Below, piece after piece: positions 28,457 to 64,000 of a stretch of DNA of 64,000 nt. Location: positions 12,951,117 through 13,015,116 of the forward strand of contig CM119270.1 of assembly GCA_051294375.1 (NCBI GenBank). Direction: 5' to 3'. How positions within the stretch are numbered: the stretch's first letter is position 1; each line of letters opens with the position of its first letter. Position numbers and translations under genes: made by a program. The DNA is from Paraspadella gotoi (lineage: Eukaryota > Animalia > Chaetognatha). The notes beneath the pieces are model-generated. The model saw only the letters and a program-made list of their open reading frames with translations, was not told the DNA's origin and did no database searches.

Positions 28457-29146
28457 TTTATAAAATAAAATCGTTGTTGAAAATTCATTTCAAACTTTTC
28501 TAATAATTATTACACAACGAAAAGAAAGGATTATACCACAATGTCTAAAAATAATTATATATTGTGTAAACAACTTTTTATGAGCTATCTGAATCTGGTT
28601 TAAAAATTAAAAATTTTTCAAAAATATTTTTGGCCTCTCCTATTTATAAATAAATATTAAAAATTGTTTTATATAATTAAAAATATATAAATTTTTGTTT
28701 GAGCATGTACTCGCTCTAAGTTTTTGACTCACCCCATTGAGTGCGGCTACCCCTACAGTATCAACCATTGTTAACCTAAAGTAAAAAAAAACAGTTGAAC
28801 GATAACTTACCTAAGGTTATTTTCAAAATTTTTTCTTATTTAAGTTTTTTTTTATGGTATCTCGTGTTGAAACAAACATTCCATTATAATTTTATCAATT
28901 CTATATTATAATCATCAGTCAGAAAAAAAATGCTATCAATTTTAACCTTTAAAAATAACTTTTTACACAATTTCATTTTGAGACTAAATTTAAAGTCTGA
29001 ACGAATGCAAATATTTTTTATACCAATCGATAGCTCTTTTAAAAGGCTATATTTATAATGTGGTATTCCTTTCGTTTCGTTGTGTTTTGGTGTTTTAGCG
29101 AAAACAAAGTTTAGAGTTTGTACTACAACGATTTTTTATTTAATAT

Positions 29147-29190
29147 AAACAGACATGTTTCGACTCTTGTTCGAGCCTTCATCAGTGTTT
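29147..29190 (-). ncRNA. Minimal hammerhead ribozyme
   Basis: Minus strand AAACA CUGAUGA A GGCUC GAACAA GAGUC GAAA CAUG UC UGUUU; perfect stem I AAACA/UGUUU. Confidence 0.85.
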
Positions 29191-29478
29191 GACAGAATAT
29201 CAAAAAACTTTTGCAAAAGTAAATGTGTGAGAGAGAGAGAGAGAGAGAGACAGAGTTAAAGTTTCCAACAAAGTGGTGAGACAGAATAGTGGTCAGAGGT
29301 GAGGACAGGTGAAGGCAAGGACAGATTGAGTGAGTTTTGAAAAGAAAGTGAAATGGTCAAACAGAGAGAGAGAGTTTGACCATTTCATTTTCTTTTCAAA
29401 ACTCACTCAATCTGTCCTTGCCTTCACCTGTCCTCACCTCTGACCACTATTCTGTCTCACCACTTTGTTGGAAACTAA

Positions 29479-29516
<38 letters not shown>

Positions 29517-29549
29517 TTTACTTTTGCAAAAGTTTTTTGATAGTCTGTC

Positions 29550-29593
29550 AAACACTGATGAAGGCTCGAACAAGAGTCGAAACATGTCTGTTT
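29550..29593 (+). ncRNA. Minimal hammerhead ribozyme
   Basis: AAACA CUGAUGA A GGCUC GAACAA GAGUC GAAA CAUG UC UGUUU. Confidence 0.85.
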
Positions 29594-29865
29594 ATATTAA
29601 ATAAAAAATCGTTGTAGTACAAACTCTAAACTTTGTTTTCGCTAAAAGGCTATATTTTTAATGTATATTTTTTTTAAATTAAAAAACCTTAAAAATATAA
29701 TAATCGTGCAAAAAAAAATGTTAAAAATTAATACAAAAATTAAAAAAAAAAAACAAATAATTGATCTAATAATAATTATATATAATAATAATAGATTGAT
29801 ATAATAATAATAGTGAAGAGACAGTAATTATTGTTATGAGTTAGTGATAGAACCGTTCAATATAA

Positions 29866-30045
29866 GCAGTCCCTGAGCTTCGGATCAGGCTCTAACACCA
29901 TGTTACAGGCGGGTTAAGCGCCCCGTCCCTCTTAACTGCCAGACGACCACCGGGCTAGAACCCCGGACCTTTGGGTTGGGAGGCGAATGACTTGCCTCCG
30001 GCACCAATGGCCGCTGATGAACGGTTGGTGGGTTTTAGTCCACCA
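29866..30045 (-). mobile_element. tRNA-derived SINE-like element (tRNA head 29944-30013)
   Basis: Minus strand: acceptor-like stem CGGCCAU/GUGGUCG, A-box-like TGGTGCCGGAGG, T arm/B-box CCGGGGTTCTAGCCCGG; anticodon arm does not pair; GC-rich structured body follows. Confidence 0.6.
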
Positions 30046-48128: not shown

Positions 48129-53754
<5,626 letters not shown>

Positions 53755-53965
53755 CTGTGATATTAAGGATGCCTGTACGATCACCATGCCTCCTTACTGT
53801 TTTGCATTGGACACCGTGAATTACGTGGTTTTCGCACGGTTCCATGTTTTATTTCTTATTTTTTCATTTTAGTCAGTTAACACAAGACAACCTTTGTTTG
53901 GACTTCTGTGCCTATTGTGTTATATTCACTATTCGGGGGAAAACATTTTTAAAAAAACGTAAAAA

Positions 53966-56271
53966 ATGGGCATGGCGACCAACGGCGAGTCGGGCAACGC
54001 GGCAGGGGAACCTGCCATCACTCCTGACCGTGCCCTCAAACTCAACGGACACGTCGGCTTCGATAGCCTTCCCGATCAACTCGTCAACAAATCTGTCGGC
54101 CAGGTTCTTTACTCGGCATTTGAGTGAGGAAGGATTACGGCAACAGCCGGGTTGCCTATGATGCCCATTGGGATTGGGCATCTCACTGTTGGCTCTAGGG
54201 GCTTCCGACCCTCAGTGGCGCCGCCTGCCATTGGCGCAGTTACCGAGGGCGGTCTCGCTTTGCGTCGTAAGGACTGTGAATGGAACGTAACGCTTGGGAT
54301 GGTGCGTTCCCCATCTGAGTCATTGGAATTGTCTTAACGATGTTGCATCTGAGGCGGTGTAAATATACCGCCGCAGGATCTTCATTCATCGCTGGTTTGT
54401 TTGCCTTCTAGGGATTCTCATTTAACATCCTCTGCATCGGAGAAACTGGGATTGGAAAATCGACCATGATGGATACGTTGTAAGTTCATCCAAAAATTCC
54501 CTTCACTCTGAAATTTCCAACCAAATAGTAAACTCTTGTCGTAGCGTAATTCATTTCCATTTTTTTAATCCTCACATAGGTTCAACACGCAATTCGACTC
54601 AACTCCTTCCCAACACACTTTACCGGGAGTGGAGTTGAGGGTAAGTTATCCTTCCAATTCTTTGAAATTGTATTGCAGAGTCAGTTTTACAAGAGAGCCT
54701 CATTTTCCACAGCCCCACACTTACGAACTTCGCGAAAGCAACGTTCGCCTTCGTTTAACCGTCGTCGATACAATTGGCTACGGTGACCAGATCAACAAAG
54801 AGGATTGCTGGAAGCCGATCGTCGACTACATCGACGCCCAGTTCGAAGGTCTGTGGCTCTGCCGTGGCGGAAAATTTCTTTTCGACCCCTAGAGTTTCAT
54901 CTTTGACATTTTTACATCTCCCTGCCAACAGCTTTCCTTCAAGAGGAGCTGAAGATCAAAAGGAGCCTCGACACTTACCACGACGGACGCATCCATGCTT
55001 GCCTCTACTTCATAGCGCCCACGGGTCATTCCCTCAAATCCTTGGATCTGATGACCATGAAAAAACTGGATTCCAAGGTAGGACAGTAGATTTTTTGTGA
55101 CTGGAAACTGAAATAGATTATTCTCTTTTTTTTTTGTAGGTCAACATCATTCCTGTAATTGCCAAAGCGGACACCATTTCCAAATCCGAGTTGCATAATT
55201 TTAAACTAAAAGTGCGTATCGATGGGGGGGAATACTATTAAAAGCTTTTAAACGCTGCTAAAGACTAATGGCGTTTCTTAATTTTAGATTATGAGCGAAT
55301 GAAATCAAACGGCGTCCAAATTTATCAATTCCCTACCGACGACGAGACCGTTGCCGATCTTAATGGCTCCATGAACAAGTAGGAAAAATAAGATTTGTTA
55401 AATTATGTATTATACATTACTATTTTGACGTAATCTTTTTGCTATGAAGCCATTTGCCTTTTGCTGTGGTGGGCAGCACGGAAGAAGTTAAAATGGCAAC
55501 AAAATGGTCAAAGCCCGTCAATATCCTTGGGGAACCGTCCAAGGTAATTTTTTTTAAACATGAGGTTGAAATATATCTTTCTCATTTCTCTTAACCATCG
55601 CTGCATACTTCTGTCATCCCCTTTTCCAGTGGAAAATGAGAACCACTGCGACTTCGTCAACTCCGCGAAATGCTCATCCGCACAAACATGGAGGATCTTC
55701 GAGAGCAGACGCATCAGAGACACTTCGAGCTCTACCGGCGCGACCGGCTGCAGGAGATGGGCTTCAGTGACTTGACTAACGAGGGAAGAGCCATTGGCTT
55801 GGGCGAGACGTTTGAGCAAAAGAGGAACGAGCACCTTCAAGTGAGCCCCTTTGAGAGTTTACAGGAAAGGGACACTTGTCTAATGTCTAGTTATATCTTG
55901 TGTATCGATCATTATTACAGGGACTTCAAAAAAAAGAGGATGAGATGAGACAGATGTTCGTCCAGAGGGTAAAGAGAAAAGGTCTGAGTTAAAGGAGTCG
56001 GAGAAGGAACTGCACCAACGATTCGAAAGTCTCAAGAAGATGCACGCTGATGACAAGAAGAAGATCGAGGTGAGTCGGTCGCGTCTTTCGATCCGAGTAC
56101 GTCAAACATCAAACGAAGACGTCCTTTTTTGTGGCAGGAAAAGAAAAAGTTGTTGGAGGAAGAGATGCAGGCCTTTTACCGCAAGAGGAGAATGAGAAGA
56201 TGGCGCAGGAGGCGCAACGCCTGGCGATGCTGCAGGCGCAAACCATGACCGGAAAGAACAAAGAAAAATAA
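53966..56271 (+). CDS. Septin, SEPT6 group (multi-exon; 1-nt frameshifts in 3' half)
   Basis: [78 protein letters not shown]-terminal coiled coil. Confidence 0.92.
54121..54388 (+). ncRNA. Unidentified multi-stem structured RNA in septin intron 1 (54104-54411); copy in 63131-63439
   Basis: Closing stem UGAGUGAGGA/UCUUCAUUCA; internal stems GGCAAC/GUUGCC, GAUGCCCA/UGGGCAUC, UCACUGUU/GACUGUGA, GACCCUC/GAGGGCGGUC, GCGCC/GGCGC, GAUGG/CCAUC, CUGAGGCGGUGU/AUACCGCCGCAG. G-U pairs favour the + strand. Confidence 0.65.
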
Positions 56272-62992: not shown

Positions 62993-64000
62993 ATGGGCAT
63001 GGCGACCAACGGCGAGTCGGGCAACGCGGCAGGGGAACCTGCCATCACTCCTGACCGTGCCCTCAAACTCAACGGACACGTCGGCTTCGATAGCCTTCCC
63101 GATCAACTCGTCAACAAATCTGTCGGCCAGGTTCTTTACTCGGCATTTGAGTGAGGAAGGATTACGGCAACAGCCGGGTTGCCTATGATGCCCATTGGGA
63201 TTGGGCATCTCACTGTTGGCTCTAGGGGCTTCCGACCCTCAGTGGCGCCGCCTGCCATTGGCGCAGTTACCCGAGGGCGGTCTCGCTTTGCGTCGTAAGG
63301 ACTGTGAATGGAACGTAACGCTTGGGATGGTGCGTTCCCCATCTGAGTCATTGGAATTGTCTTAACGATGTTGCATCTGAGGCGGTGTAAATATACCGCC
63401 GCAGGATCTTCATTCATCGCTGGTTTGTTTGCCTTCTAGGGATTCTCATTTAACATCCTCTGCATCGGAGAAACTGGGATTGGAAAATCGACCATGATGG
63501 ATACGTTGTAAGTTCATCCAAAAATTCCCTTCACTCTGAAATTTCCAACCAAATAGTAAACTCTTGTCGTAGCGTAATTCATTTCCATTTTTTTAATCCT
63601 CACATAGGTTCAACACGCAATTCGACTCAACTCCTTCCCAACACACTTTACCGGGAGTGGAGTTGAGGGTAAGTTATCCTTCCAATTCTTTGAAATTGTA
63701 TTGCAGAGTCAGTTTTACAAGAGAGCCTCATTTTCCACAGCCCCACACTTACGAACTTCGCGAAAGCAACGTTCGCCTTCGTTTAACCGTCGTCGATACA
63801 ATTGGCTACGGTGACCAGATCAACAAAGAGGATTGCTGGAAGCCGATCGTCGACTACATCGACGCCCAGTTCGAAGGTCTGTGGCTCTGCCGTGGCGGAA
63901 AATTTCTTTTCGACCCCTAGAGTTTCATCTTTGACATTTTTACATCTCCCTGCCAACAGCTTTCCTTCAAGAGGAGCTGAAGATCAAAAGGAGCCTCGAC
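62993..64000 (+). CDS. Duplicate septin 5' part, runs off window
   Basis: Same as 53966 onward. Confidence 0.85.

Follow-up and report, generated by a model that had tools for sequence, protein, structure and literature searches.

A high-copy repeat with a predicted type-P5 twister in a septin intron of Paraspadella gotoi, a candidate solo LTR

In a stretch of 64,000 nucleotides from the chaetognath Paraspadella gotoi (GCA_051294375.1, contig CM119270.1, positions 12,951,117 to 13,015,116 of the forward strand), which is here called the window and numbered from its first letter, the first intron of a septin gene contains a 238-bp copy of a dispersed and very abundant repeat. The minus strand of this copy carries the pattern of a twister ribozyme in the circularly permuted arrangement termed type P5 (PMC5408937). 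The repeat is bounded by TG...CA, and so is a second element of unrelated sequence elsewhere in the window that has a core of the same type. We think that the intron insert is a solo long terminal repeat (LTR) left by a short LTR retrotransposon without coding capacity, which may be called a twister "LTR retrozyme", and we give this reading a probability of roughly 0.6. The intron itself is a decayed antisense copy of the repeat and no new host non-coding RNA (ncRNA); the novelty sits in the repeat family.

A dispersed high-copy repeat

Ten public read runs from four studies cover the window wholly or partly. In one of them, X1, the region 53800-55300 is matched by 1,598 contigs, whose summed depth reaches 710,200 at 54157-54207 and only 34-37 in the exons and the other introns. 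The peak lies about 20,800-fold above single-copy depth in X1, about 41,000-fold in X3, about 6,100-fold in X5 and about 21,700-fold in X6, where summed contig depth is no copy number and is taken only to mean thousands of copies. A more direct sign of a dispersed repeat than this depth is the behavior of the contig ends, which run into mutually unrelated flanks: 134 X1 contigs leave the reference at 54134-54140, with a median loose length of 255 nt and a mutual agreement between the flanks of 0.45-0.53. At the opposite boundary, many contig pieces stop exactly at 54375. The copies are dispersed and single, with only one contig joint that goes back 186 nt. The parts of the repeat are as follows.

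54138-54375, minus strand: copy of the dispersed high-copy repeat, 238 bp, TG...CA ends, likely a solo LTR, delimited by the loose ends at 54134-54140 and the contig pieces ending at 54375
54139-54182, minus strand: two terminal hairpins (54182-54160 and 54156-54139), from folding; the most conserved part of the family
54263-54264, minus strand: site at which 14 nt present in most copies are deleted, from loose ends in all four runs and from pieces that stop at 54263 or start at 54264-65
54313-54323, minus strand: weak A-box-like site for RNA polymerase III (Pol III) in most copies, from site majorities compared with the A-box consensus

The intron copy differs at many sites from the majority of the family. 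The 14-nt deletion removes most of the 5' strand of helix P5 of the twister described below, and three differences fall into the A-box-like site. Between 54139 and 54194, on the other side of the core, one variant row (54175) is found among the rows listed. As a separate observation, TGGGAT occurs at 54169 and 54295, and TGGAAT at 54324; these three recurrences lie at or near hairpin loops and could form a protein-binding site.

An LTR or a SINE-like retroposon

Both read-defined ends of the repeat show the TG...CA expected of an LTR, with the CA at 54374-75. Position 54138 is T in 91,230 of 91,626 units of X1 depth and in the X3 allele, and it is the window copy that is substituted there. The alternative that survives best, although we regard it as unlikely, is a non-LTR retroposon resembling a short interspersed nuclear element (SINE). 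It would consist of a degenerate head of tRNA type and a twister in its interior, would have its fixed 3' end at 54136-54139, and would be copied by the enzyme of a long interspersed nuclear element (LINE) or of a Penelope element, in the manner of the Sm-alpha elements of Schistosoma, which bear a hammerhead. High copy number, dispersal and a fixed 3' end are features of a SINE, and the family is abundant and dispersed with a sharp common boundary at 54134-54140. In addition, four contigs of run X8 leave the reference at 63354 (corresponding to 54326 in the intron copy) and enter unrelated flanks, which is where a tRNA-like head would be expected to start, and SINEs that combine a promoter with a ribozyme have been described (PMC6765202). 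Against such a retroposon stand the TG...CA at both ends of both elements of the window, the many pieces that stop exactly at 54375, and the absence of a poly-A or clear tandem tail. Copies also show no visible start at the predicted cleavage site, unlike those of Perere-3.

Several observations at the ends speak against the LTR reading itself and have to be set against these points. Target-site duplication (TSD) around the intron copy amounts to 0/4, 2/5 or, at best, 4/6 matching positions, so that the 4-bp register known for animal Helenus elements gives none (0/4) and no clean duplication is seen in an LTR register. No two-LTR copy, primer-binding site or polypurine tract of the intron family was seen in the read tables, which give at most 30 letters of flank. 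Of the 134 loose ends, 62 start at 54134-35; many copies agree in 2-4 nucleotides past the TG at 54138, and these might represent the tail of a SINE-like element. Toward 54375 the depth drops sharply (to about 17-39 times single copy at 63375-84 of the duplicated intron), which fits 5'-truncated non-LTR insertions or else a variable U3. ARAGORN finds no tRNA in the intron copy, and the similarity of its head to that of the second element is not significant, as 1,424 of 2,000 shuffles align equally well.

A predicted twister core on the minus strand

The predicted ribozyme occupies the middle of the repeat and is composed of the following segments.

54198-54258, minus strand: type-P5 twister core, from a descriptor with shuffled controls, from a match to positions 1-52 of Rfam twister-P1 and from the element order of Rfam Twister-P5
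5' half of the core, minus strand: P2' (54258-55), GA (54254-53), T1' (54252-50), a short P1 (54249-43), UAA (54242-40) and P2 (54239-36)
3' half of the core, minus strand: T2 GC (54235-34), P3 (54233-13), P4 (54211-09), U, T1 (54207-05), AA, T2' GC (54202-01) and P4' (54200-198)
54241-54242, minus strand: predicted site of self-cleavage (U^A), placed by comparison with the twister consensus in the literature
54188-54193, minus strand: 3' strand of P5, whose partner is mostly lost in the intron copy

Judged against Table 1 of PMC8501958 and the Rfam consensus lines, the conserved nucleotides of twisters are all present, namely U^A-A, the G-A of L1', the GC of T2 and the U-NNN-A-A-G-C of L4. 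Both pseudoknots can pair, T1 as CGG/CCG over 3 bp and T2 as GC/GC over 2 bp. Among the helices, P4 has three of three pairs and P2 three of four, P1 consists of 2 bp and a 4-nt loop in the read-supported copy, and P3 is a 7-bp hairpin with one mismatch. The P5 segment complementary to 54188-54193 is present in other copies (loose ends at 63291/63292), where P5 reaches 6-7 bp. The first lead was a weak match to Rfam twister-P1 at 17.8 bits (E 1.6); positions 1-52 of that model align at 20.6 bits with an E value of 0.012, on a stretch chosen afterwards. Since the model positions missing from this alignment (AAA, P2', GA, T1') lie upstream, the arrangement corresponds to the type-P5 permutation, and the order of the core elements is indeed that of the Rfam Twister-P5 consensus. 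Both strands of T1 depart from the Rfam consensus, yet they can still pair, as is also the case in phage motifs of the P5 type. In nucleotides and pairing the minus strand matches the definition of a type-P5 twister; cleavage at U^A, which in a twister depends on Mg2+, is a prediction.

Variation among the copies, as far as the listed variant rows show it, favours the twister fold. The P3 pair 54228/54218 is G-C in the intron copy and A-U in most reads, and one loose-end consensus contains the two changes together. Most reads also have Watson-Crick pairs in place of the P3 mismatch (54231/54215) and of the P2 wobble (54238). None of the variant rows listed falls on a core nucleotide. Within the window, the twister descriptor matches only the two copies of the repeat (the intron is duplicated, see below), and it finds no match in 20,000 intron shuffles and one in 100 shuffled windows. 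As an LTR cycle implies that genomic copies span the predicted cleavage site, it is also relevant that depth continues across this site at 90-97% in the DNA runs; the corresponding 41% in run X9 was not used as evidence, as contigs cannot show RNA ends.

Phage sequences supplied a set of motifs for comparison. A first pattern scan returned 79 loci, mostly type-P1 twisters or chance matches, of which a single one passed a stricter descriptor; among 20 of these loci that were run against Rfam, seven were twister-P1 and one Twister-P5. Later scans gave 141 loci and from these 68 distinct passing motifs, chosen by our own pattern and without an Rfam check, which makes pair counts from this set partly circular. 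The motifs share the core layout, and the 68 sequences contain 13 combinations of T1, not including that of the intron copy but including its reverse. A covariance model built from 64 of them (leaving out L168, L185, L223 and L229) ranks the two copies of the repeat first and second in the window. Several P5-type twister motifs occur together on the viral contigs L168, L150, L223, L183-L185 and L188-L190, at spacings of 400-600 bp or 1-2 kb, with six in L168.

The twister assignment has weaknesses of its own. The descriptor was written after the motif had been seen. Rfam gives no match at the gathering score, which for Twister-P5 is 37.6 bits, and Twister-P5 never appears among its matches; this lowers the case for membership in RF02684, not the case that the element works like a twister. 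The phage-based model scores the two copies at only 14.6 and 13.1 bits (E 0.017 and 0.044) and does not reproduce the register of the 5' half. With 7-8 nt, P1 falls short of the 14-33 nt of the phage motifs, and P2 begins with a C-A pair. Without its pseudoknots the twister fold reaches -11.2 kcal/mol, which makes it 14.5 kcal/mol less stable than a competing helix at -25.7 kcal/mol. In that minimum-energy fold, T1' and P1 pair with P4 and T1 as one long helix, and this leads to a further alternative, in which the repeat is as abundant as described but a long imperfect hairpin happens to resemble a twister without being catalytic. The complementarity of T1 could then simply reflect the hairpin, in line with the low Rfam and model scores and with a P1 far shorter than in the phage examples. 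We consider this improbable. UAA, GC, GA and U-NNN-AAGC are all correctly spaced, and the same core recurs in a second element with T1 reversed and with other helices. Furthermore, published mutational studies show P1 to be dispensable and P2 mismatches to be tolerated, whereas the pseudoknots and catalytic bases are sensitive (PMC5113685, PMC11662667), and it is these sensitive parts that are intact in the intron copy.

A second element of the same design

The second element shares no sequence with the intron family and lies about midway through the window.

29814-30045, minus strand: second element, unrelated in sequence, 232 bp, TG...CA ends and an exact 6-bp flanking repeat, with a tRNA-Gly(CCC)-like head at 30014-29942 and a type-P5 core at 29931-29874

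It is the third match of the phage-based model (29934-29872). T1 is reversed (CCG/CGG), and P2, P3, P4 and P5 are all different from those of the intron family: the P2 strand has 3 nt, P1 is a near-palindrome of 6 nt, P5 has 7 bp, and a 9-bp outer stem is present. A relaxed descriptor finds this core, and two such sites together occur in none of 200 shuffled windows, which contain five sites in all. The region folds at a z-score of -3.13. Rfam returns nothing relevant for it. The tRNA-Gly(CCC) call appears only at relaxed ARAGORN thresholds of 80-85, at which between 27 and 9 weak calls are made in the window. The flanking repeat matches in six of six positions and sits in TAT-rich sequence of low complexity. 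The TAT run beside the element was also considered as a LINE-type tail and rejected, the analysis of the ends showing it to be flank. Adjoining the element, at 29093-29647, is a 555-bp inverted repeat of 94.8% identity with GA/TC microsatellite arms, which resembles a miniature inverted-repeat transposable element or a foldback element.

The septin intron as host of the repeat

The gene that received the insert is annotated from its translation and from read contigs.

53966-54103, plus strand: exon 1 of a Sep2-type septin (SEPT6/8/11) of invertebrate character, from its translation
54104-54411, plus strand: septin intron 1, 308 nt, GT..AG, from a spliced joint in an X9 contig
63131-63439, plus strand: second copy of intron 1 in a segment duplicated at 99.9% identity, with the repeat at 63165-63403 and the twister core at 63286-63225
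54122-54130, plus strand: 5' arm of a stem closing around the insert, host intron sequence outside the repeat, pairing with 54379-54387 and polymorphic at 54128

Proteins related to the septin contain the domain PF00735 and have the names septin-2 or septin 6/8/11. Identity to the nearest named proteins is 60-72% for the septin and 45% for SZRD1, the lineage shown being that of an invertebrate animal only. A ClpP-like gene of the same orientation ends about 210 bp ahead of the septin start codon (53754-53966), and such tight spacing could reflect an operon-like arrangement. Single bases are missing relative to the reads at 53934, 55125 and 55223 and in later septin exons, and the resulting apparent frameshifts are attributed to indel errors of the assembly. 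Long duplications are found at 32871-41803/41804-50723 and 51427-54972/60451-64000 with 99.7% and 99.9% identity, which may be assembly artefacts, and a 339-bp repeat lies at 50724-51426. The second copy of the intron differs by one extra base in P1 that is supported by reads, and contigs of X5 and X6 match 63228-63329 without differences.

The 308-nt GT..AG intron proposed by the sequence-only reading is real, as a contig of X9, a probable RNA run, skips it together with other introns. Its description as a long, GC-balanced intron among short AT-rich ones is largely borne out, with a GC content of 0.54 and four following introns of 100, 72, 83 and 62 nt, of which, at 0.33, 0.36, 0.47 and 0.29, only three are AT-rich. 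Removal of the repeat (54138-54375) and of one 6-bp flank would leave 64 nt, a size like that of the neighbouring introns, and the intron likely measured about 64 nt before the insertion. This empty site is a reconstruction, as no insert-free allele is found among the listed joints of the read runs. A scan of metagenomes with an 18-nt motif gave 65 loci, none of which continued beyond the motif, with no more than 8 matches in the following 20 bases, so that all are ascribed to chance and neither relatives nor orthologous introns were obtained from it.

Against 100 shuffles, the intron folds with a z-score of -2.64 on the plus strand (one shuffle as good) and of -2.90 on the minus strand (none as good). 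As both strands fold better than shuffles, the folding energy does not tell which strand matters. For the repeat alone the values are -1.55 (plus) and -2.43 (minus), and for the duplicate copy -1.17 and -1.52. The closing stem that had been proposed around the whole structure does form in the minimum-energy fold of the plus strand as 54122-54130/54379-54387 (nine pairs, three of them G-U), and it is absent from the centroid; its pairs all have a probability below 0.3, and a local hairpin at 54105-54131 competes at about 0.79. Both of the complementarities that had been put forward as tertiary pairings exist, with six of six and eight of eight pairs, but the second, GGAACGUA/UGCGUUCC, belongs to the nested part of the minimum-energy fold, where it forms an ordinary stem with a pair probability of about 0.9.

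These structures had suggested an undescribed intron-hosted ncRNA, a ribozyme or a cis-regulatory RNA. Of the three, "ribozyme" fits, though the motif belongs to an established class (twister type P5), is antisense to the septin pre-mRNA and forms part of a mobile repeat. The other two are left unsupported by a high-copy repeat whose copy here is divergent and has lost 14 nt, and by a closing stem that consists of polymorphic host sequence. That reading had named the counting of genome copies as a check and a high-copy match as removing novelty, and such a match is what the read runs show; it had overlooked the very high copy number and the informative structure of the minus strand. The Rfam search gives no match at gathering score in the whole window and only weak ones, with E values above 0.7, within 53500-55000. 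An intronic RNase P RNA, known from introns of insects and crustaceans (PMC4287351), was rejected, having no Rfam match here. Readings as telomerase RNA, SRP/Alu, HDV-like, pistol or hammerhead RNA did not fit when compared by eye with consensus features, and a scan of the intron for hammerhead cores found none.

Co-option by the host, with the plus-strand structure and the flanking stem acting as a stable intronic RNA or taking part in the splicing or regulation of the septin gene, could appeal to the 9-bp stem of host sequence that brackets the insert, to the folding of the plus strand and to the missing empty allele, but it is highly improbable, as the stem combines three G-U pairs and low pair probabilities with a natural allele at 54128 that turns one G-U into a mismatch (22 of 22 in X3 depth and 8.9 of 32.9 in X1), and as the copy has a deletion and many changes of its own. 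In the RNA-like run X9, moreover, 54361-54411 is hardly covered (depth 9, compared with 173 in exons) and no contig is assignable to the intron, and no orthologous intron was obtained from the scan mentioned above.

A possible cycle and its meaning

If the insert is a solo LTR, its origin and propagation could be pictured as follows. An LTR element would have inserted in antisense orientation into a septin intron of likely 64 nt. The full element would possess two LTRs, each with a Pol III-type promoter followed by a twister. Cleavage in both LTRs would release a unit RNA that a ligase could close into a circle, and reverse transcription, presumably by a helper element, would restore whole as well as solo LTRs, following the model for the retrozymes of plants (PMC4918200). 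Because the repeat copy is antisense, the septin pre-mRNA carries the non-catalytic strand; the copy would not cut this pre-mRNA and would be spliced out as a passenger.

P1 deserves attention in this scheme. In most copies of the intron family it is self-complementary with a palindromic core of 6 nt, which is broken in the intron copy, and stunted self-complementary P1 helices are found in both unrelated families of the window. Such a P1 could favour cleavage when two copies pair. On this basis we tentatively propose, as a possibility with somewhat less in its favour than against it, that the family is an animal LTR retrozyme whose twister requires strand swapping between the two LTRs of a transcript, cleaving in the resulting dimer and not otherwise. 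Transcripts of solo LTRs would then stay uncut, full elements would release a circularising unit RNA, and the genome would contain thousands of twisters that are invisible to Rfam.

Should these proposals be correct, a permuted twister would form part of the LTR of a very small element without coding capacity, and the cycle of cutting and circularisation would be modular with respect to the ribozyme and would operate in its LTR form in animals. A natural dimer-dependent twister would also be available for testing. Rfam models would be overlooking abundant predicted twisters of animals in which P1 is short and T1 altered.

Comparison with known systems

Within the papers open to search, no twister is placed in an LTR or a SINE, and retrozymes are described with hammerheads only. 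The words "ribozyme" and "twister" do not occur in a chaetognath genome paper (PMC12460157). Animal twisters are reported at the 5' ends of RTE LINEs in PMC8501958 and PMC7761336. To these belong the twister variants of Perere-3, an RTE LINE of Schistosoma mansoni (Liu 2021, PMC8501958), which share with the intron family a twister in a high-copy animal retroelement. In Perere-3 the TSD abuts the cleavage site, whereas in the intron family the ribozyme is internal and permuted, and genomic copies span it.

With Rfam Twister-P5 (RF02684) and type P1 (RF03160) the family has in common the element order, UAA, GC, GA, U-NNN-AAGC and both pseudoknots. It differs in the P1 of 7-8 nt, in a P3 hairpin, in a real P5 in intact copies, in T1 as CGG/CCG, in the C-A at the first P2 pair and in scores below both gathering thresholds. 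Metazoan non-LTR retrozymes and the SINE-like Sm-alpha elements, described in PMC7229834, PMC6765202 and bioRxiv 10.64898/2026.07.22.740005, are likewise short non-coding repeats with an internal permuted ribozyme, but they contain type I hammerheads and mostly form tandem arrays, whereas the intron family has a twister in dispersed single copies. According to PMC7229834, amphibian hammerheads in which one helix is stunted and palindromic function as dimers, and the short palindromic P1 recalls these by analogy.

Helenus elements (TRIMs/TRIMp3; Kojima 2024, PMC10886601) have short LTRs that end in TG...CA and contain a Pol III promoter derived from a tRNA, with A and B boxes; their LTR ends, their presence in animals too and their solo LTRs resemble the intron family. 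They differ in having a 4-bp TSD in animals, and a tRNA-like head is seen here in the second element only and was not detected in the intron copy. In the main text of PMC10886601, "ribozyme" stands only in the title of a reference, and of 14 AAGCCC places in its supplement, 11 were examined and none of these is twister-like. In the same supplement, the LTR of Helenus-2_SyJa shows, by eye, a tRNA-like box followed by the core motifs of a hammerhead, on which the portions seen of the paper do not remark.

A further parallel is offered by the LTR retrozymes of plants (Cervera, Urbina, de la Pena 2016, PMC4918200), which give rise to solo LTRs and circles. They too are non-coding LTR elements with one self-cleaving ribozyme per LTR, have solo LTRs and sequester the ribozyme in their most stable fold. 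Type III hammerheads, LTRs of 300-400 bp and a 4-bp TSD on the plant side stand against a type-P5 twister, an animal host, a length of about 240 bp, no clean TSD and no full element or circle seen on the side of the intron family. The family probably works like an LTR retrozyme or a ribozyme-bearing Helenus TRIM, and we regard it as a candidate member of this group.

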